Assembly: GCA_036172245.1 (NCBI GenBank)
Contig: JAYWIR010000006.1
Span: 1,240,001 to 1,304,000 of the forward strand
Source of the DNA: Raillietiella orientalis
Taxonomy: Eukaryota
Direction of reading: 5' to 3'
Length of the DNA stretch: 64,000 nucleotides
Part shown: piece by piece, positions 1,225-62,347 of the stretch
Position numbering within the stretch: the first letter of the stretch is position 1
How the letters are laid out: each line of letters opens with the position of its first letter
Notes under the pieces: generated by a model
The model's input: only the letters and a program-made list of their open reading frames with translations
Told to the model about the DNA's origin: nothing
Databases searched by the model: none
Program-made: the position numbers and the translations under genes

Positions 1225-1634
1225 TCTTTGCAGCAGGAACGCGGCATCCCCGTGCCGGCGCTCGCTCAAACGTGTCGCTCCAGCCTCGTCACAAAAACTC
1301 CCCAGTCTGAGCGTGGGCTACCACCTGAACACCGAGTAACATGTAGGAGTATAGCTCAAAGGAAAATATACGGGAAAAAACACATCGTAACAAAAATAAA
1401 CTCGTTCGTAGGCGGCTGAATTGAGAGATGGATTCAAGGTCATGGAATTGATGAATAGCTAATGAAACGGAAAATGCGTTTATTTAATTTCGGTTCACAT
1501 TATGAGTGTAGGACTATAGGAACTTTGGATTATCTTGGCCTTATTTTTATGCTGCCAATACATGAAGGTAGATTTTTTTTTTTTTTCCATAGGATTGGAC
1601 ACATGATTTGCAGGAACTCTATACAAAAGTATAC

Positions 1635-1635
<1 letters not shown>

Positions 1636-1665
<30 letters not shown>

Positions 1666-1722
1666 ATATATATATGTATGTATCTATCTATATATATATA
1701 TATAAGATTGAATATATATATA
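1636..1722. repeat. Imperfect (TA)n/(TATG)n microsatellite
   Basis: Run of tatata/tatg units downstream of the BTB gene stop codon. Confidence 0.9.
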
Positions 1723-1894
1723 GTAAAGCAGAGTGGAGAAAGGAGGCTGTAAAATTAGCCCAATAATCAAGGCAGATGCCCTTGTCCAGCATTACCATGG
1801 CACTAAATTGTCACCGGGCTACATGAAAACATGGATACAACTGAACCACATGCACTCCCCATTTGCTTCTTGTATGAGGGCAACCTTATTGGTA

Positions 1895-3505
1895 TCACTG
1901 AGTCATCAGGCTATCCTTTTTTTTATCTTCATCATCACTGGACGTTAAATGATTTGGGGGGTGAGAATGGGGAACAGATGGTGTTACAGTGTGCCAAGCT
2001 TGGGATTCAGAGTCACTACCAATAGGTTCATGCTTTGATAAGGGTGGAGTGCAGTTAGGAGCATTCTGTGAGGTCTCTGCAGTAAGAGAAGCCATTCCAG
2101 GAGAAGCACTTTGATTGATGAGGCGGCGCATTTTGGCTCGTTCATTTTGAAACCAAACCTCCTCACAAGCCACTAAGTATGCTAAGATAGGTATACCTAC
2201 CTTCACTACTCCACGCTGCAAGAAGAGCTTATCAGCTAGGAACTGCATCTCATGGCTAGTAGGATGTTGGTTTTGTGCAAAGTATGTGCGCAGAATATTT
2301 ATCTGCACAGGACTGAATACTGTCCTTGGTTTCCTCATTCTCTGCTGATTAAGTAACCTTTGAGCTTCACTGTCACTGCCAGCTCCATTCCCATTTGGGG
2401 TTGATGTTAAATTACGGCCTAGCAACCATGTCCATGTAACAAGCAGACAAAATGCACACATGAACTAACCAATGAGGGATCCCGATGAATTAAATTGTGT
2501 GAAATGACCCAATCCTGGATTAAAGCCTTGAGCGATTTGTTGATAGCTCTGCATCATGTTCACCATCTTAGCTAAATTACCAGACGAAAACGCTGAACCT
2601 ATGGTAGATTTCCCATTAAACTCTTCATCAGCATCCATCAAAGAGTTGTCATCTTCATCAGCTTCATAATCATCAGCTTTTTCTAATTTTGGCATACGGC
2701 CTTTGTCTCCACTACCAAGAGATAAATTTTCAGGTTCCATTTGTTCTTTGACACCATCTGTCAAATGATTTCCAGTTAACAAAGATCTATCGGATTTTGA
2801 GCGCTTGACTTTGTCCTGAGGGGAAGGAGATCGGGGAGATGCGGGATTAGAATTATGTTTGTTTTGTGGAGAACTTGAGCGAGAAGGAGTACCAGATGAG
2901 TCCTGCAGATAAATAATGAAATGAAAACAACTACTCAGTGATGATAACTACGATGACTGTTACATGATGACAAGAGACTTATGACTGAAAGTTTTCAAAG
3001 CTTAACTGTTAGCAAAAGAATGGAAGGCAGGTAGAAATGACAAGATGAAGAAAAATAAACAAACAACAATAAAATCACCTTATCATCTGCTAAACCACGG
3101 ATGCGGAGCACTTCAGCTGTCCTGAGAAATTCAGGTAACTGATCATGTGACACATTGACTTCTCCATGATACACAAACTGTAGCAAAGATTCCAGTTGGC
3201 AATAACTAACATCCCTTAAAATGACAATTGGATGTTGGCAGGGGTTATCCTAAAATACAACAGAATAGCAAATCTGAGGAGAACCGAAAAGTCGTTATTG
3301 CACTTACTTTGAGCAAATCTTTAAAATAAGGACTACAGGCAGAAAGAATCATTTTGTGGGCTTTAATGCTACCTCCATCACAAGCTAAAGTAACATCTAC
3401 AAAGTCTTCTTCTTTACGAAGGGATTCAAATGCAGATACAATATTGCTGTGAAAATTATTCCATCTCAGACAAAATCTTTGAGGCTTTTTTTGTGGTTCA
3501 CCCAT
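1895..3505 (-). CDS. Tramtrack/broad/bab-type BTB-POZ protein with C-terminal Q50 homeodomain (~427 aa, 5 coding exons)
   Basis: Exons 3505-3308, 3249-3079, 2902-2470, 2418-2201 and 2158-1895 are all GT-AG and phase-consistent, totalling 1284 nt. The N-terminus [50 protein letters not shown] is a ttk-type BTB. The C-terminal part [32 protein letters not shown] is a homeodomain. Confidence 0.88.
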
Positions 3506-4539
3506 GTCTCACATCAGTCACAACACATAACCAGAACGAACACAAAGGAAATATTTATATACTCGGCATGGGACATACTTGTTTTCCAGTTTTGTATACC
3601 AAAACACTGTGAATAAATTAGTCAAACACATAACACTGAAAATGTATGTCTTTGATCATTCCTGTAAGAAAATTGATTGTCACTTCATGTAGCAAATGCA
3701 AGACTTCACGAAAAGTATTCGGCGAGAAGCTTTCAATGAAAGAATTAGTCTTGTCACATGCATGTTTATTTCAACTAAATAAAGAATATGGTACAATGAA
3801 ATCAATTGGATTTCTCGGATGAGATTCTTTTATGATTAAAATAAAGACCAGGTCTACTTGTATTTTCTTAAATTCAATAGATGTAATGATGAAAGATGTG
3901 AAGTAAACGTTTATTCAGTTTTTCATATTAGGTGCTACATTGATTCCAGTCAAGATTGCTGATATCTAAGCTAACAAAAACTATAATCAAATCAGCATTC
4001 CAATTTCAAACAGGAAGTTGTGGGGCTACACATCTATACATAAAAAATGAAAAAAAAGACCATACACAATTTAAACAAAAACATAAGCCAGCTGGTTCAA
4101 ACATCAGATACTACAATAATACAACACCTCATGTTTATTGTGCACTATAAATTTCATACCTTGGATTCAAAAACAACCACAAAGGGGAAAACAGACCTTC
4201 AATGTAGGTATTAAATATTGTGCACGATACCCAATCCTTTTCTTGCACACAGAATGATAGAAAATGCACTCACTGTGTAAATTCAAATTAATGAATACTG
4301 GTGACAAAATAATGATTCAGTTCTTTTATAACTCAGAAACATATTAAAGAATACCTACAAACTGACACTATTATTAATATACAAGTATGTCACTTTCAAT
4401 ATGTAGTATTTTTTACAGGAGCATTAAGTGCAACTTGCTGGAAAAAAGAACACTGACAATTTCTTAATTTCAATCAAAGATGTGATAGTCATAATTTTTA
4501 GTGCCATTATTCCAATATTTCATCACTTTAGAGTGCTTC

Positions 4540-13032: not shown

Positions 13033-13209
13033 ATAGTCCTTCTCATAATAGTCCAAAAGAGGTAAGATAAGGATTTATAGTAGTGAGGGTAAAGATGCCA
13101 GCGGCTTATCATTATGACTTCGGAAAAAAAAGCAATGGAAGCTTTGGATGAAGGAGAAAGCATAGCAGATGTTGCCAAAAGGTTTAAATTTGGCAAGACG
13201 GCTTTATAT
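13033..13209 (+). mobile_element. Wolbachia-like IS630-family element, left part (transposase N-terminal HTH, frameshifted)
   Basis: ATG at 13095: MPAAYHYD.(+1 fs)KKAMEALDEGESIADVAKRFKFGKTALY, matching the recalled IS630 N-terminus AYSxDLRxK..G.S...VA.RF. The segment begins near a TA dinucleotide at 13034. Confidence 0.75.
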
Positions 13210-14489
13210 ATCACCCGGATATGCCAGGACATTTATTATTCTGATTTTTTACAAAATTAGATAATTATATAAAAGTCTATCAATGTTGTTTGTCGTGGAG
13301 GAGCACTTGGTTCTCTCACGCTGGCGGACTTGCCGTGAGCCGGTGCTGAGACCGGCAAGGTCCTCTCCCGAGGCGCAGGGGAAGGGGAAACTGAAACAAA
13401 AAGAGAAATAACGGGAAGGGGAATAGTTATATGGGGGAGTGGAGGGCAGGGGGGGGGGATCACTGGGCGCCTGGGTCGGTCCTCTGCATCCTATCCAGGA
13501 TGCTGACAAGTTCTGCTTTGATTCCACGCCTCTCCACCCACGGCAACCCGCAGGGGGGCGTGTAATTCTTCAGGATAGGGGGCACCCCGGGATGGGGGTC
13601 CGCCCTATGAATCCAGGAAGGACTCGGAGTCCGTTCCTCTGACGCTTGGGGAGGGATCCCCCCCGCATGGGGGGGATCGCACCTCCCACCCTGGTTGTCT
13701 CCGAAGGGGAACCCCGAGGGGAATCTCCTTCCTCATTCTCTACGGAGGGGCACCCCCCCCTAATGGGGTGGTGTCCTCTCCATTTCAACTTCTCCGAAGG
13801 GAACCCGAATCCCTTCGCTTGTAGGAATTTCATCTCCGGAGGGGACCCGCAAGGGAACCGCTCCTTTATTCACTCCTCTGAAGACAACCCCCGAAGGGAT
13901 GCTTCCGAAACTCAGAAGGGGCGCTGCAGCTTCCCGCAGGGGGATCGCTCTCGCTTGCTTCCTTGCACTCTTCTGGAGAGGCGACGACTCGGAGGGACCC
14001 CCCAACAGGGGGGTCCGCCCCTTTGAACAACTGGAGAGGTGCCCGTGAGGGCTCCTGCTCCATCTTGAAACCGGAGGCGGTCCCCCGGTGACGGGGGTCC
14101 GCTCTCCTTTGCACACAGGAGGGGGAACTCCCCACTCCTTTATTCCTGGGAGGACCCGAAGGTCGACTCCCATTGTTCCGGCCTTCATCGGGAGGCCGCC
14201 GGCTTAATCCACAGCCGGTGCCACGCCCGAATGTCTCGGCCAACCAGCGCCATCTTGCAGGAGAAACTCGGAACCCGACGACGCAGTGGCGTCAGAGTTT
14301 CTGCCGAAGTATTCGAACTCGCGACGCATGGTGCCAAGTTCTGCTTTGATGCCACCTTGTCGCCGTCTCCAAAGAGATCGTCGTCCAGTGGATGGCGTCC
14401 CTGCATCTTTGGCCTCTTCTTCAGTTCCACCTTTGCACGCAGCAGAGGACTGCTAGAGATGCAGCGGGACTCATATAAAGCTGAGGAGA
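13210..14489. mobile_element. 1.28 kb mostly GC-rich insertion interrupting the IS630 transposase (unclassified, possibly a retroelement fragment)
   Basis: Sharp GC rise at ~13290-14460. Flanked by tttatat (13203-13209) and tttatct (14490-14496). Contains an internal direct repeat caagttctgctttgat (13507-13522 and 14335-14350) and degenerate SEGxP-encoding repeats. Confidence 0.6.
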
Positions 14490-14586
14490 TTTATCTGAGT
14501 GGAGAAAAAGACGTAAGGAAACAGGAGATTTTCAGTCAAGAAAGCCTGGCAGCGTGGGTTATAATCATAAAATTACTGACTGGGAA
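14490..14586 (+). mobile_element. Wolbachia-like IS630 transposase, continuation after the insertion
   Basis: LSEWRKRRKETGDFQSRKPGSVGYNHKITDWE follows directly on ...KTALY from 13209. Confidence 0.75.
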
Positions 14587-15900
14587 GATAATGTATTCTT
14601 CAATCTACTTGAGGAAGCAAATTACGAACAGCAAAGTTTAATGAATTTGGTTCAGCCGAGAGATAATGCTAATAAGATTTTCTCTGGAGCTCCAATCTTT
14701 TTGCTACTGCTCCTTCGTAGCTTTGTTCCATGTTTCTCAAGCGCAAGTACCGTTCCATAAAGAAGGAAAAGCCCCTTTTCTGTCCGTCTCTTTCATTCAT
14801 TTTCGTTTGAGCCCCGTCGCCGAGTAAGTTGACTCATCCACTACTTGAACTGTAGGGGGGCCATCCATGTAACGTAAAATAAAAAAGTCAAATATACAAA
14901 CGAAATTTTATACATTTCACATTTCAGAAATCTTAGGTTTATCTCTTGGTGAAAAATGGAAGCCACAACACATCTCTTGCATGCGTATACTGTGCAATGG
15001 TTGTGATTTGTGTCACCATCTTGAATTTGAAGCGCATCCCTTTGCTTACTCCTAGGGATTCTCTAAGACTGCGGGTGACCACTGGCATAATTTGCATTAA
15101 TCTGCTTGAAATACCAAAGAAGCTGCTAAACGGAGGGTGAACACTGACAATACCTGCTTTTTTCCTTTTTTTGCTTTTTAGAATCTCGTGAACCTGCTGG
15201 GTTGCGCTTTATATTTTCTTCCAGAAAAAAAAAGAAAAAAAAAAGCATACGTCTGTGTTCTATGTAAAGCAAGAGCAGTCAGCTCAGTGGACCGAAGGGT
15301 CCTGGTGTTTTGAGCCCAAGCGATCACCAACACGACAACAAGCCTCCCGAGAATCCTCTCTAGACCTACAGAAATCGATACCTACGCCTGTTGACGGTGA
15401 TGATGACCCCCATCCAGAGTTCAGCCAACGGTCCCCGGGAACTGCGTGTTGTCGTAGTTGACAACGAGCAACAGTTCCCGTGTTGACATTTGCTTCACAG
15501 CCAAAATGCAAGCCCACATTTCGGGTGTGACTTTCTTCGTCCGTTAATGAAACAATCCGCAACCGCTTCGAATTGAATTCGTTATTTTGTTTTTTGCCTT
15601 TTTGGCTGCGGTGATGGCTTTCGCATTCACGAATTTCGGACATTACGAGTTTGAGCGGAGGGCTGCTGAATTGAAAGACGCAGGCAAAATCGGTAAGGTT
15701 CACATCGGTAAGGACCCACGCGGCACATCCTCCACCTGATTTTTGATGATGCGAATTCCGAATGAATTGAGCACAATGGGGAGCTGCTGGATCCCCAGTG
15801 GGTCGCGGCACCTTCTTGTGGTCTGATTGGCGCCAAAAGAAATGGGAAACGAGGGTGCGCCTCCACCAAACCGCACAGAAACCGAAACGAAATGGGTTGC

Positions 15901-16240
15901 TGAAAAAACAGCGCGTTCCAATTAGGTTGCAAGTACCGTACACGATGTGCATTACGTACACTTCAGAATCGCAACTACGCTGGGTCTCACCCGTTGATCC
16001 TTTCTCCACATGAGGATCTTCGATCACGCTACCCACTTCACAGTAGGTGATGATGACAGTTTTCCGTTATTCCGTTTCAACCTGGATTTTTCTGCCACTC
16101 AGCGGTACATAGAACTGAACTGAGCACGCTTCATCGAAACACGAACAGTACACGGAATCCATCTAGCTGCGATTCCGAAACGTACGCAATGTACATCGTG
16201 TACGGTACTTGTATAATAATTGGAACGTGCCGTTTTTTCA
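15901..16240. repeat. MITE/foldback-like element: ~84-bp imperfect inverted arms around a ~175-bp spacer
   Basis: The arm at 15901-15984 (tgaaaaaacagcgcgttccaatta..aagtaccgtacacgatgt..) is the near reverse complement of 16159-16240 (..acatcgtgtacggtacttg..taattggaacgtgccgttttttca). Confidence 0.8.
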
Positions 16241-17140: not shown

Positions 17141-18882
17141 TCATTTAGAGTTTGCAGCAAAAGCAGGAATTCCGGTAATAGCCCGTCCCAAAATCAAGGC
17201 ATGGATATCATGGGTTCCTAAAAACAAATCAATCATTTTCACTTTAAAAGGACCAACCTTCATAAGTGTTGACTCCTTCTAAATTAAGCACATGACGAAT
17301 GACATGATATTCATCACAAATACCATTTCCTCCTAACATATCTCGAGCTTCACGAGCAATATGTAATGCCTTTCCACAAGAATTGCGCTTTATCATGGAA
17401 ATGTGTTCTGGCAATGCCCTGAACATTATATAAGATAACATCTACAGTTTTGCTTCTTTCCTTACCGACCCTCATCCTTAAGTCTGCCGATGCGTAAACA
17501 TGTTTGTAATCCCAAAGAAATCTCTGTCAGCATATCTGCTAATTTCTTCTGAATAAGCTGGTTGCATGCTAAAGAACGTCCAAACTGAAAACGATCAAGC
17601 ACATACTGTCGAGCAGTGTGTAAACAGAATTCAGCAGCACCAAGAGCACCCCAGGCTATACCATATCGTGCATTATTTAAGCAACTGAAAGGACCCTTAA
17701 AAATTTATTGAAGCCATTCACGTTAACCAGGACAACCTTCAGTCCTGAAACATTGGGTAGGCAGTTGTCTTCTGGAACTTCCACCCCATCCATCAGTATC
17801 ATGCCTGTAGAAGAAGCTCGCAAGGAAAACTTGCCTTCGATTTTTGGGGCACTTAAACCTTCCATACTCTTTTCTAGCAGGAACCCTCGAATTTTCTCAT
17901 CCTCACATTTGGCCCAAACGACAAAAATATCTGCGATTGGTGAATTTGTAATCCTAGAAAAACAATAAGGAAACAATAAGGAAATAAATGTGCATTAAGA
18001 TATATACCAAGTTTTGCTTCCATGGATTACATAAACTTTACTTGAAGGTTCATAAGAAGCACGAGTTATCATGCCTCCTGGATCACTGCCAAAATTTGGT
18101 TCAGTCAAACCAAAACAACCAACTAACTCACCCTTTGCTAACAACATACATCAACTTTATGAATATCTGAAAGTTCAACATATTTTACCAAGTTTGGGAA
18201 GGTATCTTTGTTTTTGCTGTGATGTTCCATACTGCCATATAGGGAACATCACCAGAGAACTTTGAACACTCATTGCTGATCTGTATCCACTATCAACTCT
18301 TTCAACTTCTCTTGCCATTAAACCATATGCAACGTTGGATACACCTGCACATCCATAATCCGGAAGGGTGCATCCGAGCATACCACATTCTCCCATTTCA
18401 TACATGATGTCTCTATCGAACACTGCGATAATAAATCCAAAATTACTATTTGGGAATTATAAACGTCACGTTCAAATTTGCAACTATGATAAGTAAATGG
18501 CATTCCAAATAACGGAAATTTTCACAACCACAAACTAAAATCCTCATACCTTCATTCCTGAACGCATTCAGGACACGTGTCATAAGTTTCTCTTGGCAGT
18601 AATCATGAACTGTGTTCTGGATTAATCGTTCTTCGTCGGTGAGCTGGCTGTCCAAATCGAAAGCATCCTCCCACTGGAAGGCTAAAAGGTAACAACACCG
18701 TTTCAAACCTATCAGCCGATCGACTGGCCGTACAAAGGGATGAAGCCATGCAAAGCGTTTCAATGCGCTAAGGTTCAAGAGATGCAGATGATGATCAAGT
18801 TACCTTTCGTGCTCAAGAATCTCCCGGAGCTACGAGCTGCCACTGTCCACGATCGTCCCCCTTTGAGAAATCGTCTGATCAT
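17141..18882 (-). CDS. GCDH: Glutaryl-CoA dehydrogenase, mitochondrial (~419 aa, 8 exons)
   Basis: Exons 18882-18804, 18681-18550, 18422-18189, 18137-18008, 17953-17737, 17695-17466, 17418-17258 and 17217-17141 sum to 1260 nt. Motifs include [46 protein letters not shown] and [37 protein letters not shown]. The N-terminus is an Arg-rich transit peptide. Confidence 0.96.
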
Positions 18883-22302: not shown

Positions 22303-23376
<1,074 letters not shown>

Positions 23377-28079: not shown

Positions 28080-29447
28080 ATGGATTTTCACAGTGCTCCA
28101 CCAGAGAATAGTATGATCCAATGCATCTTTTTCAGTGAGTTTCATCCAGAAGTTGGAAGGAAAGTCACCTATCAAGTGAGCTCAGGTTCAAAAAGTGCCT
28201 GATAATTTTTCTGTTGGCCAACAGGTCCCAAAGGACTTCCTGAGCAAAGAAGTCTTTGATGCTGTTAGTGCCTATATTATCCCTAAGAAAATGATTTTGA
28301 AGAAAGTAGTCACTATGTAAGCTCATATGTAGCATTCTATATCTGGAAGATTAAGGTGTGTGCAGAAATACTCTAGGCTATAAAATCACTGGCTATCCTG
28401 TTACTATTTGCAAAGAGCGCTACAAACGTGGTGAACTGCGTTTTAATCTCTGCTTTGTTTGTAGCTGTAGACACCGTACTTTACAGTACGAACCTGTAGT
28501 TATCAAACTATCTGAATATTTGGTATGGAAAAGACTTAGTGTTGTCTAATTGTACACTTGTACAGGTAAATTTAGAACATGAAAATCAATTCCTTTCTGA
28601 TGAGAACAAGAAAGAACAGCTAGCCAGTATGTTGCAGCATATCCTGCAGCAGCTGAATGCTCATCAGTTTGCAGTTATTTCACTTGGTTTGACTTAATTA
28701 TGTAATTTCCATAGCTTGTTATCTATTCCTAGATGAGATCAATACACTGTACCTGAAAGTTGTCAGCATGGTCCCTTATCCACCTTCTGTATCAAACTAC
28801 GATGTACCTATTTTCTTGGAAAGCAGGTACAACTTCCAACTAGACCAATGGGATCTGACAACTCAACTTATCATTCCATATATTAATGGCCAACTATCAG
28901 TCAGTAACATCAGCAAGCTGACACAAGTTGATCTTGAGCTAGTGAAGCTGTGCATCCAGAATCTGATGTATGGTATCTTCAAATAGTCTCTAAATTGGGT
29001 CTCAGTTATTTCAGATTAGTCACCCTTTTGCCTATTTTTGATTATTCTAACATATATGTGATCACCCCTCAAATTGATCAAATGGCCCAAAACCGTAAAC
29101 TGCAACTCAAGTGTCTTAATGCTGTTATGGAAGATAAACAACTGCCCTCATTTCGTCAAGTTTTTCAATTATTCTGTGCCATGCAAGCTGGCACTAGCAT
29201 AAGAGACTTGTGCAACCGTTTTAATCCCCAAGTTAATCACATTAACATAAAGAAGCTAGTACAGTTTGGTTTGATGCATGGTTTTCTTCGTCGCTGTTAT
29301 GAATATCCCATCAGCACTGAGGATGAAGGCACTTTATTTGATGGTACCAAACACATTGATTTCATTTGCTGCTCTCAGAATACAAAGTTAGATCAACTTC
29401 TCAAACACCTTGAAGAGGAACCTAATATCATGATTTTTCGTTGTTAG
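28080..29447 (+). CDS. NPRL2: GATOR1 complex subunit NPRL2
   Basis: IQCIFFSEFHPEVGRKVTYQ|VP, YKITGYPVTI..RYKR..L.FNLCFV, QWDLTTQLIIPYING and KLVQFGLMHGFLRR. Multiple short GT-AG introns. Stop TAG at 29445-29447. Start is 28080, alternatively 28113. Confidence 0.93.
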
Positions 29448-30949
29448 AACCTATTACAAATATACGAGAAAGTATTTCAGGACAATAATTATATTTGTAA
29501 GATTTTTCCTCAATGATAACTCCACTTAAATGCTGATGAAACCGCAGAACATTAGTAATCTTCACAGGGAAACTATCAACTTACCAGTTCTCCACAAACA
29601 ATGGGGACCACTGTTAAGTTAAATGCGTAGGTATCTCCATGCCTCAGCTTGCCAAGATTTACACCACTAATCCCCAACCAAATGATGCTGGGAGTTTTAT
29701 CAGAATTAACCAAGTGGAGCACTAAATCCAATTCTTGCTTAGCACAGTTCGTGAGAGTGCACTGAAATTTCACATGCTCATTTAGATGTACGAGGTTGGG
29801 CAGATTCTGAACTGTAATACGAAGATCACTTGGTGATGGCAGTTGCCCAGTTAATGGACTACTCTGAAGTCTTCCTTTTTCTCCAAGATCACTTCTCCAT
29901 ATCATATCCAACTTTCCTAACAGTTCTAATTCTTTGCCTTTTACTAATGGTGTCAGGCAATACAAGTACTGACGAACATCAGCTGCATGCATGCAGTTCA
30001 CTTTTCCAAAGATGCTGCAGTCAAGAATTTCATCACCATCCATTATGTTATTATGTGAAGTCACTACATTGATTACAATAAAGAATATCATTACCAAGTA
30101 GTTTACCAGAATATGCAGAACTGGGTTCAAATGTGACTTTTTCGAGATAAATTGATTTGCTTGTTAAATTCGTGATCTTTTCTTCTAAATACACCTCTCC
30201 TGACTACAATAATAATGAAAACAAAAAACATCCATATGCATAAGCAAATAATACCTCAGCACCGAAAAACCTCGTTTTTATTTCAAGAGGCTTTTGTACT
30301 TGGAACTTAAAAAGCTTTTTGAAACACTGTTCTTCACCTGAATGATTCACGTAAGTTACTGTACAGATCAACCTAAGAACATCAAATGTATACCAACATA
30401 TATGTTTTTATTTGTTTTTATGCTCACATATAGCTACCTAAATCTCTGACTTCATGCTGTAGTACTTGATCCACACTTCCATCGGGTTCAAGTTTTGCAC
30501 ATTGTAATTCTGGTCCATATAAAACAAATTTCTCATCAGATATTTGTAATTCGGCTTTAACTCGAACATTTGTTAAGCAATTTACGCTTTCATTGTGTAC
30601 GCTAACATAGCTTGTGAAAGTTTCCCCTAAATAAATTGGACTGAAATTATTTCCTCAATGCTTTCACATGCTGACATATTGGAAAAAGTTTACCCGAAGC
30701 TCTGTGGTAAAACAAGCATATTGTCAAAAGCTAATGATTCTAAGCCACATGCTCTTTGCATCGAAATGTCTCTTCCTCTTTGGTCTATTTCTTTTGACAA
30801 GTCACAGATATCAAAAACCAGAGGAACTTCCACGTAAATTCCGGGACTCGAAAGTCTCATAACTTCACATAAAAACGGAACACAAATTACGATTCCACTG
30901 ATGCATGCACCTTACCTTTTAATTCTAGATCGTAAGTTTTTGACTCCAT
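29428..30949 (-). CDS. TRAPPC13: Trafficking protein particle complex subunit 13
   Basis: MESKTYDLELK|VMRL, IYLGETF, FKKLFKFQVQKPLEIKTRF, DVRQYLYCL and LGKLDMIWRSDLGEKGRLQSS. The last exon 29532-29428 reads HLSGVIIEEK..IFVIGSNNEKS*. Confidence 0.92.
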
Positions 30950-33629: not shown

Positions 33630-35161
33630 CTAAATGGCATCAATGTCAAGATCATCATCATCAGATTGCTCTTGAGGGGAAGTAACAGCTGAAGTTGTCT
33701 GAGGAGTACACTCTCTCAAAGTGGTGGCACGCAAGCGATCATCATAGTCAATCTGCAGGTATAAAGCAAACAATTCACCCACTATCTTGCCTACCTCCAC
33801 AGCACTCTCTTCACTTGACTCCTCCTCTGCTTCTAACAACCAACGAAGGAATGGCTCAGCTGCCTGACGGATCTCCGCAGCCAGCTCTTTGTTTACATAA
33901 CGACGACTTGCACGTTTACCCCAATCAAGAAGCACTTCCTCTTCTAGCAGATCACTATCATATAACACCTTCAAAATTGTGGGCACTTTAGCAAGAAGAT
34001 TCCTGTGTAATTGAACCAGTTGCTCTATGCCACCCAAAAGGCTCTTTTGGGCTTTATGGTTACCATGAGTGAAACACAAAAATAAAACACGATATTGCTT
34101 AAGACGAGAAAACAATGCCTCATCCAAAAGTAATTCAGACAGCACTAATGGTGCTTTATCTCTAATGTCCAATCTTTCTGCTTCAAGTAGCACTTCTCTG
34201 TGACATCCCATTAGAGTTCCTGCATCATGCCGTTGTCTGACAAAAGCATAGAACAAATCCACTCGTTCCTACAATTGGCAACTAAGGGGACAATTATTCA
34301 AAGTGACTCACTTTCTCAGATTTATTCAGATCATCAGATACTGTCAAATTCTTGGCACCTTCTGTGAGATCTTGCATTCGCTGCTGCACTGCTTCCTGGC
34401 TGATATCTTCTGCCCAATCATCATCTTCTTCATCTTCATCTTCCTGCAAGGAAGTTACAGGCAAGTCTGAACAAAAAAACCTACCTCAGCAGCCTGTACT
34501 TCATTATCAGATACAGGACTTGCTCCTGCATCAGCTGCTGACCCATTGGTTGTGACATTCTTGTCTTTCCTTTTTTTGCTTTTACCCTTGGATGGTGTGG
34601 CTAATGATGATCCAGAAGCTGCTGGATTCACATCTGCGAGAAGTACTACATACCAACTTCTACTGAATCAATTGCCTACCAGGTGGATTTTTCAAAATAA
34701 ATGTGGTAAGTTTATGCTTCATATCCACCAATCCTTGATGGCCACATGCTTTGCACGAACGCTGAATAAGCTGCTTGCGATTATTAACACATAGCATTGT
34801 TTCTGGATTTTCACATTCTGGACAGAGGACAAACTTGCGAATAAAACCATCCAGCAAATTTTGTAACTTGAGGGCATCATGAGAACCATTCACAATGTAT
34901 CTCTCGTTTTTGAAGTCGAACAGGGTTTGGGCACCCAGTTCACATCCAAAATATTTGGTGGGATCTGCAACAGGAAGTGATGCATCATGAAAGCTGCAAC
35001 TCACAAGTGGGTGGCCGACTGAGTGCCTTAGCTACTTCTACCATGTTCACAATAACTGTCTTGATGCCATTGCCTTTACCCTCCACCTTAGCCTGCAAAC
35101 GAGGCATCTTGTATCGATAGAACACATCTGACACATTGCGGTTAATGTTGACACTGCCCAT
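33630..35161 (-). CDS. EIF5: Eukaryotic translation initiation factor 5
   Basis: [65 protein letters not shown] zinc ribbon, W2 domain [30 protein letters not shown] and C-terminal DLDIDAI. Confidence 0.97.
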
Positions 35162-35180
35162 GGCTGTAGGAAATGGACAA

Positions 35181-35511
35181 CTCTGGTATACAGAAAAAAA
35201 AAAAAAAAAAAAGAAGTCACTAACAATTGAAATTTCTGAAATAAACTGATAACTGATTTTTATCTAGCTACTTTAAGTACAGTCTGTTATCAATTTAAAA
35301 GTTCGTACTTATGACATTTATTTGCAGCAAACATACACCCTCCTGGATCTGGGCCAGAGGCCTCAAGTTGTTTTCGGAAGCTGGATGGGTTTCCTCGTGA
35401 TAACAGTAAATCTCCAAAAAAATTGAACAAACATTAAACAGGATATTTCACAAATCGAAAAATTGCGAAAAAATAAAAACAATACATACCTTTCCAGTTA
35501 TACAAAGTCAT
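35181..35511 (-). promoter_or_regulatory. Predicted weak-context upstream ORF in the spliced eIF5 5' leader
   Basis: uATG at 35511 (context tttTATATGa). Predicted leader introns are 35489-35412 and 35336-35183. The main ATG is in strong context gccATGg. Confidence 0.5.
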
Positions 35512-38500
35512 ATAAAAGAATGGTTCTTATGGACTGTTCTAAAGTCTAGGCAGATTATTGACTACTATTGATTCACGATGCCCGAACTAATGCCGTATTC
35601 GGCTGGAAGCTGAAGATAAGAACGAAGAGGGCTCAATATCTATCAACAAATTTTCCATTTCACATGATATTGCACAAAAAACAGTTTCATGTACCACACA
35701 CACACACAAGAATCAAATACGAATTAGAAACATGAATGCGTTTCCCAAGTTCTCTTTTCTTTTTTCTTTCCTTTTTCCCTCCTCCATGTTTTGTACCTTC
35801 GCTTACCAGGACATCCAACATCAGCAGTACGTTTTGATGTTGGATTTTGAAACAAAAACTTTTTCTACAAACGCTCGTTAAAAAGGATTCCTGCCCATCT
35901 GAATAATTTCTCATTATCAGGTCGGAGCCATTTCGATACCAGATACTTTCCAGATACTTTCGTAACGCGATCGGAAAGAAGAAAAAAGTATCCCCCCTCC
36001 CCCCGACACCACCACCCAAAAAGGGAGGGGAAAAAAAAAAAAAAAGAGGAGGAGGAGGAGGAGGAGGAAAAAAAAAAAAAAAAAAAAAATTGAAAACCCC
36101 CAGCTTACTCTGCTTCCATCTACTAGCGATCCCCCTCTTCCCTCGACCGAAATCCTAGAGGCTAAAAGCACTTTGAACATGCCCCTACCTGTCTCAAAAT
36201 GGTGAGCTGGGTTTTTTTCCTTTTTCCTTTCCCCCTTTCCTGAGCCAGAAACGTGGCCACGCCAGCCCTGCACTTCCCCGCAGCTTCGTTTCCAGTGTGC
36301 TGCTGAGAAATTTCAGCAGGTGGAGTTTCACGATATACAATTTTGAAGGAAAATTAGACTTTACTGCGCAATCGGCGGAAGAACGGGAATTTCTATTATT
36401 GCGTTACGTTTGTTCTCGTTTTCCATTTCGTTTTTTCTTTTTTCTTTTCTTTCTCTTTCGGTTTTTTTCCCCCCCCTTTTTCACGTGCTGCTGAGGTGGG
36501 AAAATGGGTCCGTCGATTCGCGATTTGCCCGTGTCCCGTTTCGATTACAGGAAGCTCTGCAAATCCCGCGATGCTGCTCCGGAAATACAAAGTTCTAGCC
36601 TTGGCTCTTGCGCTATCGATTCTTCTCAATGTCATGCTCCCTCCCCCACCTCCCCTCAGCAATCAACATCCCACTCAAATAAATACTTTTCCGGGCCCAA
36701 ACTCTTCTCCTTCTTTTCCTCGTACCTGCAAAACTGTGTGCTGAATGTGGGGGAACGGAATGCAGGCATCTGCCTCGAAAGTGCTACCTGGGTGTAGGTG
36801 GTTTCTGCAGTGTGGACGACGAGGGGCGTTACGATTGACTCGAAGAAAGATAATCCCAACGCAAAAAAGAAGAAAAAGACGAGCGCTTTCTTCATTTCAT
36901 TCATCGCTGGAAATGGCAGGGAGCAAGTACCAGCGTGCCCCGTTGGCTGCCGTCCTCCGTGGTCAACCTTGCGTCAGTGCACCTGTCATGTGGCAACTAC
37001 CGTCAGTCACTCTAAGGAATGAATATGCATAACTGGATTCCGAGGAATTCTGAAATTTGCATATTGGATAAGCCTCGCCAGCAACAGTTTGCATGAAACT
37101 GCGCCCAGGACAAAGTGCAAGTGGTTCCAGTGACCACCACATGCAAGCACCAGAGTTTCCGGTTCGCAAAACTTTCACAAGGCTGTCTGCTTTCGAACGA
37201 ACTGCCTACATAATCTGTCGGTTTCCTCGATTCCAAAAAAGCTGCTGCTAGCCAGAAAAAGAAAGAACCTGAAATGCTCTCTGAGCTGCTGCACCGCGTG
37301 CCGTGTGCTGGTGGTGTGGAAGACGCATTTCCGTCGAGACACGGAGGGACAACTTTGCTGGTGTTTTGTCTTCGAGATCCGCGAAGGCCGCTGCCTACCT
37401 CGGTCGCGCTTGCAGACAAAGAAAGCAACTTTGTACGAATGTGGCTTTTGTTTCACTTTTCCGAATTCCCTGGAGAATTCCCCCCTGCAGCATGCACAAA
37501 CGCAAGGTGCGCCCCTGTCAGAAGGATGCAATGAGGATTTCCGTGCCCGTGGCAGCGGTGGTTCAACCGTCGAATCTGATGAAGTGTGAGAGACATTCTC
37601 TGGATTCAGTTCCTCCTCCTTCGGAGTGGTTAATGGGCACGATAAGGTTCCAGGGTGGTTTGAAAACAAGCAAAGAAGGACAGTTAAAGACATTGCGCAC
37701 CGCTTTTCCTTCTGAGAAAGCTTTCGTAAAGAGTGAAAAGGGAAACGGATTGTAAAACCTGCGTCGTGCTTCCACAAGGTTGTTGTTGTTGTTGTTGTTG
37801 CTGCTGTGTCTGATTCCAATATTCATAGCGAGCCTACGTAGAGCAAACCAGATCTCAAGGTGGTATCTGTGGTGTTCGTCATCAGTACAGCATCACTCAA
37901 CAGCTCTTTGTTCAGGCTCCGTAACTTTTGCAAAATTTTCAGCTCCCATTGACAGTTTTCGATGCAGTGATCCGTTAAAACTGCATCCGAGCGGGACTTT
38001 TCGGATCATCATTGCGTCGGAAGCTGCTGCAGAGAGGGCGATGAATAGTGGTTTTGGATTAAACTGGAACGCGGTAACCATGACGACAGGAGCCCTGACG
38101 AAAAAGCAGACAGTAGATGGAAAAAATCACGATTTTTCTTTCCGAATCGGAATAGGCAACACATTCTAACTTTGCAGCCCGGTACTTAAAGTTTTCTAAA
38201 AAAAAAAAAAAAAGATGGGACGGATGCATCTTTTCAGCGTGTTGAAAAGAAAGTTAAAATTGACTAGAGATCCAGGTTTCGGTTTTGTTTTCAATTTTTC
38301 AACACCATCCAAGAAGATCTGGATATGCTAGCATTTGTATTCGAACACGATGAATCCCGCAGCAATTTGCTGGTTATTCACAAATCGCAGCTTTTGGGAC
38401 TTGAACGTGAAAAAAAAAAAAAAAAAAAAAAACACTTGACTCCAGAGAGCTTTCTCTTTCTATGAAAGCAGTGCAGGTAAATGGTACCCAATTTTTCAGC

Positions 38501-39329
38501 TTCACATTTTGTTTTCTCATTGGCACCTGATGTGTTGCAATCTACTTTCACAGTTGGCTTGGATTTCTGATCTCGACGCTTTCTTCAGCTGCACACCTTC
38601 AGATTTTGGTTTGTCATCCCCATGTGTTGAACAAATAGCCAGGGCACGTCAAAATCTACAGCAGATGAAGGTTCCAAAATTGAAGGTGGCAAAATACGTC
38701 GTCCTGAACGGTAGCAGCTCCAATGTTTCACGGTTTCTCCAGGAAAGCGGGTGGCATTTTCACGAACTCCTATCCACCTCCCAGAAAAAATGAAAATTAT
38801 TACAGAGCCATATGTTGTGAAGGAATGAAGTTCCAGTCACATCCTAGTTATGAAATTTAGAATTCCTGCCTGAGGCTCGCTCACGTTCTTGGACCACTTC
38901 TGTCTGCGTTGTATTCCAGTTTCTGTTTCATCTCTCGGATAATTCCTCGTCACTTTCAGATTCTGCATCGGATTTCGATTGGATGCATTTGGTTAGCCCT
39001 CGTCCATGATCACCTTCTTTCGTGTCACTGTTGAACTCGATGATGCGTGTGCGGATCGTGTGAAACACGTCAAGCTTCTCCGGTCAAAATTAATGCCAGC
39101 ATATTAAACAACACGTTTCAGAGACCTCAGCTGAGGTTCAAAGATACGTGTACACTGTACACTGTTCTCCAACATTCCCCACCGCACCCCTAACTGCTTT
39201 CACGTCAGCGTTCCGTGTGAGGCAGTGAAGTCTTCCGTGCCATCCTGGCACATGCAGCGTATACGAGCATCGAGGAAACTTTCTCTCTTTCCGGTGGAAA
39301 CTTTTCCAAGTTGCGTTCAAAGCGTAGGA

Positions 39330-39790
39330 GGATTCTATGTAATGGGTTGCTTGACATGAAGGGAGTGACACGTTGCTCGAGCTGCTGTTTTCGCTTTGGT
39401 GTATCTGTCAAAGTAATCTTTGGTGTTTCTCAGAATTGCAGCTGGCACGACCCTGTCCTCCTGCCGCATCAATCTTCGGGCAACCGTCTTTTGCAGCGAA
39501 ATATCTGATCGACTGTGTCGCGTTTGAACACGTTGTGCACGAAACACAGCATTCCCTCATACCTTCCTTGTGAATGTAAAGTCACTTATGTGTTTGGGAG
39601 CTCTGAATTTTCTACCAACTTTCCAATTCTGTAAGTGCTGTTGGTAGTGGTCCTGTGCTCTTGTGATCCCACCATCACGGTTTGTACGATGGTGGGATGA
39701 TCTCCCCTGCGATGTCCACATGTATTCTCGACAGAGTCGCCTTTGATAAAAGAATTTTTCGACACAAGCAGCCCTTGATGCAGTCAACAT
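39330..39790 (-). mobile_element. Decayed Gypsy-like LTR retrotransposon integrase remnant
   Basis: SRIHVDIAG (~39730-39705, cf. WSRIHVDFAGP) followed by NWKVGRKFRAPKHISD (cf. WI.RFG.P..I.SD). Frameshifted. Confidence 0.45.
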
Positions 39791-42700
39791 TTCAGGTTTT
39801 CTGTCGTTCGATAGAAGAAACTTTTTCTCAACCGCGTTAAAGATGAGGGAAAAAATAAAGAGAGATCCATCAAATGTTCCAACAAAAGTAAGATGTTTTA
39901 CGTGGAATCGAAAAGGGAACGAAGGTGAAAGTGCTGTGTTTGAATTTTCACCGATCGACTATTTTACTGGTGAAGACTATGTACCCATTGCAACACGATT
40001 CCATTCCATGATAAGAGCGAAGAAAAATCTAGCAAGTGACTCTGGGATTATGGAGTGGGCAGAAGGAGAAGACGAATGAGATCACGTTCATGATCCGGAC
40101 GGACACCATCATGAACGAACGATCCTATGGAGCATGCAGAAGAAAATTGAGATGAGAGAGTAACCATGCTCACAAAATTCGACTTTGTACCGACAAAGTC
40201 ATTGACCATTCGCCCAATTTAGCTACGGAGTGGTCAGAAAGTGTCTGCCTTCCTGTTCGTTATGCCCTCCTCCTGAGAAGAATACGGGAAAAGGCAATCG
40301 TGAAGAAGTTCGAATGAAACTTTATATCGTATCATCATCATTTACCACATATTTACCCGTCATTATTTTTACTTTTGGGATGCTGCTAAATTTGTTCATT
40401 TCATTGTGAAAATACAAGTTACTGTTTGGCAATTTGGTTTCTCTCATTTAATTATCCATTCATTTTATTTTATTTTTTCAATTTTGATTACCCATCTGGA
40501 TACAATCAACAACATTCTACAAAGGCAGCATTTTTGAATTTTGGATTCCAGCAGAGGTGACCACGTCGGATGCGCACTGGACCAGCAGCTTCGCAGCAAT
40601 GCAGTTAGCTTGTGTTTAGTAATAGCTTTCACCTATGGTTTGATGAATTCTTTCCGGACGGATTTTCCGGACAGTTGGAGTTCTAAGAGAAAGTGATGTG
40701 CTTGTTTAAGCGAGGATGCTGCTTGTAGAATTAATCGGAAGCACTTGGCATGACCTCTCGTTCGGTAGCATCAGCTGACAGACATCTATCAATTCATAAG
40801 TTTTGCATGAATTCTTTCCTCTCTTTCTTAACCTTAAAATAAATACATGCATGCATGCATGTTTCACTAAGCAAAAATTCCTGATCTTTGGGATCGCGTG
40901 ATTTTTCACGTGCGTGGTTGTCGCTGTCATGCCACATTTTGCGTTAGAGCTTTTGAATCTGTGTAGCCACACTTCGACTATACCTCAGTCCACGTGCAAC
41001 TTTTTTATTTCAGGGGGTGGAGACCACCTGACACTGAAAATGCTTTTCAAGCTTCTCGACCTCTTGACTAGGACCGAGGCGAGCGACTTTTGGCGAAATT
41101 CTCTCAACCTCTTCTGACACGTGCCCAATGCTTGGACCACTGGTTGCCACGTAGTAGTGTCGTGTCGAGTAGTAAATGTGACCACGAAGACCCTGGGAGA
41201 GAAACTGAAATGACAAGCCTGTTCGTTGCGCCGTGCGTTTTGATGCTCTGGGGTGTAGAAAATTTTGCCACACTCTCGAAGGTGGTTTTCTGAGACGGTA
41301 CCAGTGGAATGATCAAAAGTTATCATTGGAAACTTCTTTTGTTCCTCACTGGTTGCCATGACATCCTTATTTGTCCTGTCGGACTGTCACTTATTCGCTG
41401 ACGCCGCTGGGTCTTTCTCAACGTGCCAAATCCTTCGGGTTTTCGTGAAAATCTGTTGTTGCACGTGTCCAAGATCCATTAAACACTTTCCTGTCTTCAG
41501 TTAAAATGCATTTGAAGCTCTGATGGCATTGATGTGTTGTCGATAATCGAAACGTGTCCAAAAGAACATGAATTCGTTTCCACTGATGTAAACTTCAAGG
41601 ACCGTTTCTCATTGCATGCAGCTCTTTGGTAACCAAAGTATAGCAAGGTGTCCTTTATAAATTAACGATAATCCTTCGTAAAATGACTTCTTAGACACTG
41701 CAGCAATCGAAGAATTTCTACACGATCGTCACCGTGTAATATCAAATGTCCATAACTGAATGATTTATGCAACCTTCTCGTTCTGCACTTATCTTCCATA
41801 AAACGAAGCACAAATCATTCCTTTCTTGCAGAAGTTATCGCCGCTTCTACAGGATTTCTGTTCCACAGAAAACTGCACACAAAGCTTGTGCAGAATAACA
41901 GAAGAAACATGGAAAGTGAAACCCGTCATCGAGAGTGGAAGGATCCACGGAACGTTTTTGAAACCTACAGAAGAATTCTTAGCAAGGAGGAATCTGCTGG
42001 TGCAAGGAACTCGAGAGTGACTCGATTTGCTGCCTTCCTCAGCCACCCTACTTTTCAAGCTCAGTTTTGCTTTCCTTGGTCCATTTCCTGAGCGGTAATT
42101 TCCATCAGACTTTGGTACCTCAAGCAGTAAGCTCCGACTGCCTGCTATGCATTTCGTTCAGTGCCGCAGGTGCTGCGGAGGCACTCTTTGTGCAGAGCAC
42201 AGCTTATCTCGAACCGCTCATTGTGCGTTTTCGAAGGCGCTCAGAAATAGCCTGGGCAAGTGGCGGAAGTGTCGCAAAAAATATTTGAAATGGAAAGTGC
42301 CAACTCTGGCAAGCAAATGTATCGCGGACAATTCCTCACCATCGGGCAGAGAAGGGTAACGAACTCGGCTGCGAGGTCCTGATAAGCGGAAACTCGGGGG
42401 GGATGGAGGGGGGCGGGGGAACAGCCTGCTACGCAATGGGTTCCCCCTCTCTACTCAACAAGGTACATCTTGAGCTCGGAAGTTCCCTGGGTCAGAAATA
42501 GGACAACCTGAGGTGTCTGTCTGTCCGATTTATAAGAGAGAGGGAGATCAAGAAACGAGGCTTCCGATGAACGCAGGCTGGTGTCCAGCTGGTGGAAGAT
42601 GGACTGCCAGCAGCAGACTTTGGTTAGGAGTTGGATGTTGTGGGAATTTTGGGGCGCACACTCGAGAAATACCATGGCAGTGTCACGCCAAGTGTAAGAG

Positions 42701-44249
42701 GAAGGGAGGGGGAGGAGCACAGCAATCTCGGATGTTTTGAACTCATGACGCAAGAGAGCCACAAACACGAGCACTTTGAACGAGTAGGTAATTTAGTTCA
42801 AGATAAGGATAATTGGCCAAGCGAAGGCTAAGCCGGACGCGGCCTCTATCGGAAGGAATAGAACAAATAAGAAACGATTTTTTCGTCTCTGGGAACTTTG
42901 GAATACTTTTTCTTCTTCTTCTTCTTCTTCTTCCCCCTAGAGGATCAACTGATCATCGGTGCCTGTCCGTTTCCTGGTCGTTTGCGTATTTTTTTCCACG
43001 GATGGCGTTTGTATAAGTTTTCCGATGTCTAGGGGATGGAAAAATGGAGCACAGAGAATGATGTTAGAACCCTCTGTAGTCGTATATTGTCGACTATGTA
43101 ATGTACCAGTTCCTTCTCCAGTGAACTCTTTCTCTCTCTCTTGTCATCAAGGGAATACAGGGGCAAGACGAGAATGCTTCTATGCTCACAGGTGAGGTAG
43201 GCTGGTAGAATCAGTCCATGAGCCACTTTTTGCCTGTAAAATCAAGGTGACGCGATCGGCCATGCGCTCCTGGAGTCTCTCTGGGAGATGGGCGCCCGAT
43301 TCTTAGGGCTCCTCAGGATGCAAGGTTCGGTTCACGCGGAGATCTGATAGAAGGAGTAGGGAGGCAGGTTTCCGGATGGTCGGGCTTCCTCTCAGCCAGG
43401 AGGGGAGGCGGAGGCATTCGGAAGCACCTCGCCGCTTCCGGGTGATCCACCCTGTGCTGACAGCGTGCAGCATCGGACTTTTCCGAGCACGGCTACTCTT
43501 CGGAACCCTTGAGGGACTCAAACACTCTGACCACGCTTCTGTGCAAACGAAACCACTCGCAGTCTTCTGCTTGAGGTCTTTCCTTTCAGCCATCTTGGAG
43601 AGCAGGATCGATCGGTGATTGGAAAAAGAAAGAAAGAAAAAAAGCATATGGTGATAATTTGTAATTTTTTAATAAGGTGATGCTTATTCTCTGTTTTGTT
43701 GATCATTTCATGCCAGGAAGCGTTTCTACGCCCTCGCCTTCCATCTTTGAACGATCCTCCACCCTAATGCCACGGTGATCTTCGTGTCGTCATTTTCTCA
43801 ACATGCGGAATGGCTAGAGAAAGCTGCTTCGCCTCCGTGCTTTCTCCTCTCTTTGTGTGCTCTCAAGCGAGCAATGCAAACACCCAAACCTTCGCAACCG
43901 CTCACAAACACCACCGACAGAATTACCAGCGCGTCCGGTATCTATGTTGCTGACAAGCTTGCTTCGGCGCTGTTTATCTTGGGAGAAGATCCTTGAGACG
44001 AGCATTTCTTGCTCTTTGCTGCTCCGGTTGTTTTCCACCCCACCCTCTTCTGTGTTTGCTGTTGACAAACGACGATGCGTCCGAATACTGCAGCATCTTC
44101 CAGAACTCTGTAGCATCCTTTCCGGTCGCAACGACGCCAGCAAAGAATGTTGGTTCCCCTTGTTGCAGAAAGATATAGTGGCTCATCGAACGGAAGTGCG
44201 GAGTCACCAATCCGAGTAACCTGACCTCAAGGGACTGCACGTCCCTTGG

Positions 44250-44750
44250 TTCTCACGTTTTTCGTTGGGAATGCTTTTATAGTGGACTTTCAGCACTGCA
44301 GTCCTTGGAAAGGTGGAAAATCCAGATTTATGTGGAGGAAAATTTGGAGTGATCGCGTTGGCATGGTACACCAGAAGTCGGCAGTACCCAGGAAGGCCAT
44401 TTCCAACATGCTGGCCACCTTGCGCAACGATCCACATGCTGAAAACACTTACAGAAGGGTGGATGAACACGGAGTAGATGTAATGAATTTTTTCCTTCGA
44501 TGAAACGCAAACCTTCCAGCCCAGGGGATGACGGGTTTTATAACGATGTCGACATTGCGGACGAAGGTGGATTCAGCTTTTCCCTTCTGCACGCGCACCT
44601 TTCGCGTCCCATCCGGGAATGTTGCAATGCACGGCTCCTGAATAGAACCAGCTTCCTGTAAGCAAAATTCTGCTTTTTTGATGGATTCTGCGGCTCTTTT
44701 CCGGTGGGAAGTAGCGAACAAGGGAGGCTCTGCACAGCCTATTTCCAAGT
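44250..44750 (-). mobile_element. Decayed Gypsy-like integrase remnant
   Basis: CACRREK (zinc-finger CxxC-like), then VDRCARWP (cf. VDRFTRWP) and WV..SGVP..D (cf. W..RFGVP..D) in the expected order. Confidence 0.4.
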
Positions 44751-61800: not shown

Positions 61801-62347
61801 TGGCTGGTAAATGAACAAATTGCAGAAAGCTTTAAGTAATGCATTTTTACAGAAAGCCCAGGATGCATTTAATGACTGGATGAAGTATTTCTATAACCAA
61901 CCACAGCCACCTATGTTGCATACAGACAATTTCATTGAGCGGATCACAAGTGAGCATCAGGAGCGCCAGTATGAAGAAGCTTTATCCCAGTGGCAAAGAG
62001 CCACTGCACATTACACTGATAGGGCATGTAAGCACTTGCAAGCAGTGCTTCAGTTCCCAGATGGTGGTTGGCTGGTAGACACTTGTGTTGAGAAGGGTGA
62101 TGAAAGACGCCAGCAGGAACTTCAGAGCTTACGCAAGCTTTGTCTGCCGCAAATCTTTTTTTCCCTTGAAAGAGTAGTCATTTCCTCCAGATCGCCTCAT
62201 GGAGTCTCATTTTTATTGGAAATACTTATGGATGAAAACCATAAGCTCTATAGCATATTCGAACACCAACATTTGCAAGTATTTTATGCTAATTTGGCCA
62301 AATCTATGGTGGAAACCTTCGAAAAAATGCAAAGTATCGTTTTTTAG
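57243..62347 (+). CDS. NUP107: Nuclear pore complex protein Nup107
   Basis: QEKKCWSLVSSLYRDRL, CQIVVDWLE, WENTL..LVTQLDPDAPERQ.KKLHDLD, GQPWRAAILEGWRLYHDPN, RKIDALEWL and VLQFPDGGWLVD..LRKLCLP. The core runs 59581-62347 with 39-46 nt introns. First exon 57243-57468 is inferred from a phase-1 match to the acceptor at 59580. Confidence 0.93.

Follow-up and report, generated by a model that had tools for sequence, protein, structure and literature searches.

Does the minus strand of this stretch, between positions 3505 and 1895, encode one protein that joins a Tramtrack-type BTB domain to a homeodomain, or do these coordinates hold two adjacent genes, one form of a locus that exchanges its DNA-binding exons, or a fusion in decay? 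Factors with a Tramtrack-type BTB are a characteristic feature of how arthropods regulate genes and organise chromatin. The catalogue of homeodomains is very detailed, and we know of no class that is listed with a BTB companion. We analysed the whole stretch of 64,000 nucleotides, referred to here as the window, and consider it very likely that the locus is a single intact gene of an arthropod, most probably a crustacean. The predicted product is a 427-residue transcription factor with a Tramtrack-group BTB, a disordered linker of about 170 residues that is acidic and rich in Ser and Pro, and a typical Q50 homeodomain of 60 residues, and it would belong to a family shared with the ostracods Darwinula stevensoni and Cyprideis torosa.

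Organization of the gene

Five minus-strand exons join into a frame of 1284 nt (427 codons followed by TGA) that runs without a frameshift or an internal stop, and an in-frame TGA lies two codons 5' of the ATG at 3505. All four introns are of the GT-AG type, 58, 176, 51 and 42 nt long in gene order, and the exons are entered in phases 0, 0, 0, 1 and 0. Exon 1 (3308..3505), recognised by its frame, Pfam and tblastn, supplies the ATG and the first half of the BTB domain; after the phase 0 intron 1 (3250..3307; placed, as were the other introns, by reading of the splice sites) the second half follows in exon 2 (3079..3249; Pfam and tblastn). Intron 2 (2903..3078), also in phase 0, leads to exon 3 (2470..2902), an open frame of 144 codons that ends in phase 1 and encodes a linker rich in Ser, Pro, Asp and Glu, in which a Pfam scan found no family. 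Beyond intron 3 (2419..2469), exon 4 (2201..2418) carries the end of the linker and homeodomain positions 1–46 (2338–2201). The coding part of exon 5 (1895..2158), separated from it by the phase 0 intron 4 (2159..2200), carries positions 47–60 (2158–2117) with the VWFQNERAK helix, a C-terminal tail and the TGA; both of these exons were recognised by Pfam. An earlier note on this DNA had proposed a phase-consistent gene of five exons joining a Tramtrack-type BTB to a homeodomain, with a phase 1 intron at 2469–2419 between a constant region and the DNA-binding exons; all of its coordinates were reproduced, Pfam finds both domains, and the phase 1 intron is there, 51 nt in length. The BTB and homeodomain matches are far above chance, and judged from its sequence this is a real and intact protein-coding gene.

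The Pfam BTB profile (PF00651; cut-off 20.5 bits) matches exon 1 at 51.7 bits (E 1.2e-13, profile positions 1–41) and exon 2 at 37.6 bits (E 2.7e-9, profile positions 49–100). Codons 11–16, within exon 1 (3475–3458), encode FCLRWN. The part of PMC11426971 available to us defines the Tramtrack-type BTB by the motif FxLRWN, in which x is hydrophilic; the window BTB matches the motif but has Cys at x. We assign it to the Tramtrack type because FCLRWN fits this definition, and the same part of that source describes the type as arthropod-specific (PMC11426971). Among solved structures exon 1 matches the BTB domains of human ZBTB proteins, NAC1 and BACH1, and 0 of the 23 matched sequences are from arthropods.

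For the homeodomain, the Pfam profile (PF00046; cut-off 22.9 bits) matches exon 4 at 39.1 bits (E 6.7e-10, profile positions 1–45) and exon 5 with an E-value of 0.015 (profile positions 46–57), and the open reading frame that reads through the intervening intron scores 52.4 bits. The spliced domain is 60 residues long and is not of the TALE type. Numbered from M295 as position 1, it has R5, F8, L16, F20, W48, F49, Q50, N51 and R53, and an intron splits it between K46 and V47; direct reading confirmed all of these features as the earlier note had listed them, along with Glu at position 52 (E52), to which we return below.

At 42 nt intron 4 is very short and its acceptor (gag|G) is weak; the acceptor is backed by an uninterrupted stretch of 12 residues across the junction in a protein of Cyprideis (P0086, see below). 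The intron is in frame and free of stops, such that the unspliced frame stays open and the homeodomain then carries an insert of 14 residues. The acceptor is a tandem GAG|GAG (2159–2164), and use of the upstream AG could insert a single Glu at the 46/47 junction of the homeodomain. The other retention events end the frame: when intron 3 is kept a stop follows at once, and when intron 2 is kept 28 extra codons precede a stop, a possible source of a BTB-only product.

Upstream of the gene, a TATA-like motif, TATATAAA, was read directly at 3554..3561 on the minus strand, 49–56 nt 5' of the ATG, and is a candidate core promoter. On the other side, the probable 3' UTR is placed at 1465..1894, minus strand, its 1465 end being an estimate, and ATTAAA/AATAAA poly(A) signals overlap at 1488–1479; the first AATAAA past the stop (1484–1479) lies about 410 nt downstream of it. 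A (TA)n / TATGTA microsatellite occupies 1630–1722 within the probable 3' UTR, before the poly(A) signals. The transcription unit would then be about 2.1 kb.

Elsewhere in the window Pfam identifies genes for an acyl-CoA dehydrogenase (17465–18456, minus strand), a proteasome subunit (22493–22867, minus), NPRL2 (28693–29444, plus), TRAPPC13 (29579–30163, minus), eIF5 (33633–35263, minus) and Nup107 (59928–62344, plus). These housekeeping neighbours all have short introns, and the genome is therefore read as a compact eukaryotic one. Positions 1–1400 form a block of 46% GC, against 31–38% nearby, with many overlapping open reading frames on both strands that match no Pfam family, runs of CAG/CAC and GTC/ATC triplets, and a C14/A18 run near 55–85; the block may belong to the next gene, as its promoter or its first exon. 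Two further stretches, 13200–16100 and 36000–45200, have 44–50% GC and dense, long, overlapping open reading frames on both strands, reaching 260 residues (15287–16066). Their reading frames of at least 78 residues match no Pfam family at E ≤ 0.001 except for a weak DUF4672 at 35966–36202, and the two stretches may consist of repeats or of coding sequence of low complexity.

Relatives in ostracods

An exhaustive protein search covered 1.84 billion representatives with the 173-residue homeodomain open reading frame, including the 14 residues of intron read-through, as the query. It returned 85 proteins at E ≤ 0.001 and none at E ≤ 1e-10. A Pfam scan of these library matches covered the 49 shorter than 900 residues, and a BTB and a homeodomain occur together in one of them, P0073 (BTB at 83–179, homeodomain at 367–422). 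This is CAD7248478.1, an unnamed protein of Darwinula stevensoni, and it ranked 73rd of the 85 (35.9 bits, with the intron insert in the query). A region-restricted search with P0073 added a single protein, P0086 from Cyprideis torosa, which has the second half of a BTB (profile positions 47–101), a linker and a homeodomain at 845–901. When the window BTB was compared by phmmer with the 86 proteins then collected, only these two matched.

The likeness extends along the whole protein. A blastp comparison of the spliced model with P0073 gives a single alignment running through BTB, linker and homeodomain (residues 9–351 against 66–422, 35.9% identity, E 4e-61). By tblastn, P0073 matches exon 1 with 72% identity over 58 residues and exon 2 with 61% over 56 residues, and the gap between these two pieces coincides with the junction of exons 1 and 2 in the window. 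Within the linker, SDRSL of the window gene stands against SDRPL or SERPL in the ostracod proteins, and the tail in exon 5 carries a 10-residue motif resembling SSTDDENDRKE of P0086. The window and P0086 homeodomains align without a gap, and all three proteins have the same recognition helix, VWFQNERAK. The ostracod proteins thus resemble the window gene in the order BTB, linker, homeodomain, in this helix, in the combination of E52 with a basic residue 17, and in the linker and tail motifs; their homeodomains are 47–55% identical to that of the window and 75% identical (45/60) to each other.

Both ostracod gene models are imperfect. According to the part of PMC8049415 available to us, such models are MAKER predictions guided by transcriptomes. 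In the P0086 model a complete 6-phosphogluconate dehydrogenase is merged with a BTB that has only its second half, followed by linker and homeodomain; two neighbouring genes have probably been annotated as one chimera, with the loss of BTB exon 1. P0073 has an N-terminal extension of 60 residues and an insert of 30 residues with a second recognition helix. Its residues 412–441 comprise two tandem helix segments, consisting of VWFQNKRTREREK plus 17 residues and then the conserved 13-residue segment; the first helix copy reads VWFQNKRTRER and differs from the conserved VWFQNERAK downstream of it. The extra segment may stem from an error of annotation or from a duplicated helix-3 exon, perhaps one used in alternative splicing. 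Still further downstream the same protein has two degenerate W-x-Q/R-N repeats.

Searches of other kinds added no further member. Word-indexed searches for longer proteins gave no match with the homeodomain reading frame or the linker exon at the thresholds used, and no public protein model of the window gene itself appeared among the word-indexed protein searches. A metagenome scan with the back-translated recognition-helix motif returned 11 loci, none of which (0/11) has a BTB within its 2 kb flanks. Nine of the 11 match the homeodomain part by tblastn, two of them over its full length at 33–41% identity and the rest around the motif only. On the evidence of these alignments we regard the window gene, P0073 and P0086 as a small, unnamed BTB-homeodomain family, conserved but lineage-restricted. 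The earlier note had suggested a lineage-specific factor; the gene is not the invention of a single genome, as the same collinear architecture occurs in two ostracods, and what stands is the narrow range of lineages.

Kinship of the homeodomain and residue 52

A phmmer comparison of the spliced 60-residue homeodomain with the 86 proteins returned 248 homeodomain stretches. Those that aligned over 50 residues or more and scored 15 bits or more (173, with 75 dropped), together with the window homeodomain, make up the 174 rows of the tree. The best scores per domain are those of P0044 (49.1 bits), P0086 (48.7), P0040 (46.3) and P0073 (44.2), and among the 173 others the highest identity to the window homeodomain is that of P0086, 55% (33/60). 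The smallest clade that includes all three BTB-linked homeodomains also takes in P0044 and so has four tips (174 rows, 60 columns, no starred support). When the tree is left free, the window homeodomain is placed beside P0044, a POU6-like fragment, and this pairing is flagged as long branches meeting; a constrained tree that holds the three BTB-linked homeodomains together is not rejected (p-AU 0.988, 60 columns). These trees are compatible with the three being close relatives, and compatible too with their being orthologous.

Assignment of the window homeodomain to the ZF, LIM or POU class was left aside, since the tree gives it no support. Companion domains that define classes (LIM, POU, ZF, CUT, PRD) are absent from the five exons, in which Pfam finds BTB and Homeodomain only. 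The top library matches are long proteins with multiple homeodomains, and the one inspected, P0001, also has C2H2-like motifs; LIM- and POU-linked homeodomains occur among the matches as well, with class names that in part are what we take them to be. Three apterous-like gene calls (P0008, P0010 and P0018) contain read-through inserts between RVLQ and VWFQNARAK, and the intron at 46/47 is therefore present in these genes also.

Across the 174-row alignment position 52 is A in 75 rows, T in 67, R in 15, K in five and E in three, the last being the window homeodomain, P0086 and one domain of P0002; E52 is found too in the second helix-3 copy of P0073 (VWFQNERAK). Residue 17 is R in the window homeodomain and K in P0073 and P0086. 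In the part of PMC13530268 available to us, a salt bridge between residues 17 and 52 is said to join helices 1 and 3 in most homeodomains. With a basic residue 17 and E52, the bridge between helix 1 and helix 3 would be kept with its polarity inverted, which argues that the homeodomain is probably folded and functional, and the R/K17–E52 pair would be a naturally occurring exchange of charges in a stabilising interaction that has been studied in depth. The earlier note had singled out E52 as atypical. Its rarity, 3 in 174, bears this out, yet it does not appear to mark a defect, being common to the ostracod relatives, and we interpret E52 as a shared derived character of the BTB-homeodomain family.

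Alternative readings and comparison with known factors

We infer that the BTB and homeodomain exons lie on one transcript, and the reading that competes most directly with this splits the locus into two neighbours: a short gene for a BTB-only protein, comparable to Drosophila Batman, and another for the linker and homeodomain. BTB-only proteins of the Tramtrack type do exist, Batman being named in the available part of PMC11426971; retention of intron 2 would end such a protein 28 codons on, and exon 3 contains several internal ATG codons. However, only 176 nt lie between BTB exon 2 and the linker exon, whose frames are compatible, and this interval lacks a poly(A) signal and has consensus splice sites. 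Gene models from two further species show the same collinear order, with one alignment passing through the linker, and we consider two genes very unlikely. A fusion that is decaying or non-functional and confined to one lineage, its homeodomain disabled by E52 and other departures, has even less to recommend it. E52 is indeed rare, the pair at 31 and 42 that usually forms a salt bridge is M/R here, and the homeodomain exon matches solved homeodomain structures weakly (engrailed and POU homeodomains, four sequences, best E 3e-6). Against this, the strongly conserved R5, L16, F20, W48, F49, N51 and R53 are all kept, E52 with a basic residue 17 and VWFQNERAK is conserved in three species, and the 427 codons are undamaged; decay seems to us scarcely credible.

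The remaining alternative accepts a transcript from BTB to homeodomain but makes the homeodomain exons just one of several 3' cassettes spliced, in cis or in trans, to the donor at 2470, the others encoding other DNA-binding domains as at lola or mod(mdg4). [quoted passage not shown] The boundary intron is in phase 1 and the constant part stops before the DNA-binding exons, the window holds just 1.9 kb downstream of the stop, and the second, different recognition-helix segment in the Darwinula model hints at exon duplication. The earlier note had remarked that this is the kind of junction at which lola- and mod(mdg4)-type genes exchange 3' exons; a search for alternative exons through the 64 kb window, 1.9 kb of it past the stop, gave no other BTB, homeodomain or C2H2 exon. 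Specifically, tblastn with the model and with P0073, and motif scans in six frames, found no other BTB or homeodomain in the window, the one recognition-helix match being the gene's own; the sole C2H2-like string is 50 kb away (53397–53465, plus strand), and the 167 further open reading frames of at least 78 residues contain no DNA-binding family recognised by Pfam. Past the homeodomain exon there is a poly(A) signal, and the ostracod homologues combine the same BTB with the same homeodomain. We judge a cassette locus of this kind improbable, and continue with the single gene with one homeodomain as the preferred reading.

In such a protein the BTB would be expected, from its domain family, to dimerise through the strand formed by FCLRWN, and by analogy with Tramtrack-type BTBs it may form hexamers or associate with other factors of this type. 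With several homeodomains held on flexible linkers, the assembly would have high avidity for clusters of TAAT-type sites, or would connect sites that lie far apart. As to its origin, the homeodomain would have been acquired at the DNA level, by gene fusion or exon shuffling, and would not be a retrocopy because the intron at 46/47 has been kept; exon shuffling is a plausible route. A bolder proposal is that this is an unrecognised crustacean homeobox class in which a hexamer-forming Tramtrack BTB clusters up to six homeodomains, with the recognition-helix exon tandemly duplicated in at least one species (Darwinula), and that alternative splicing could swap the DNA-reading helix, much as lola does with its alternative zinc fingers. 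We regard this proposal in its entirety as doubtful.

The earlier note recognised no BTB-homeobox family, and in the literature searched we likewise found the pairing described nowhere; text searches, with most subscription journals outside their coverage, returned no paper describing a BTB-homeodomain architecture. The partners of Tramtrack-type BTBs given in the available part of PMC11426971 are C2H2, HTH/Pipsqueak and FLYWCH domains. The supplementary domain tables of that source (14 text files), which cover no ostracod, list no true homeodomain in the part available, all nine occurrences of the word (9/9) being 'plant homeodomain'. In a protein atlas, the large clusters nearest P0073 (scores below 0.9, and to be taken as leads) are arthropod families of Tramtrack-group BTB proteins that list HTH_psq, C2H2, FLYWCH or the BTB alone, and none of the clusters at these scores lists a homeodomain. 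As far as these searches reach, the BTB-homeodomain family is undescribed; public protein sets contain it without giving it a name.

A conserved family of this kind would add a partner to the Tramtrack-type BTBs and a class to the homeodomains, and would offer a natural test of how obligate multimerisation bears on homeodomain site selection. It is a moderate and not a major surprise, because the family seems narrow in range and its members already lie, without a name, in public protein sets. Compared with the ZF/zfh, LIM, POU and CUT classes, the window gene likewise has a 60-residue homeodomain together with a second domain, and it shares the intron at 46/47 with the apterous-like gene calls, but its companion is a BTB and none of theirs. 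Its likeness to the Tramtrack group of arthropods (Ttk, Lola, Mod(mdg4), Broad, Bab, Fruitless, Psq and others) lies in an N-terminal BTB with FxLRWN, a long disordered linker and a C-terminal DNA-binding domain. In that group the DNA-binding domain is of the C2H2, Pipsqueak HTH or FLYWCH type, whereas here a homeodomain takes its place, which on the predicted protein makes the homeodomain a new DNA-binding partner for a known class of BTB.
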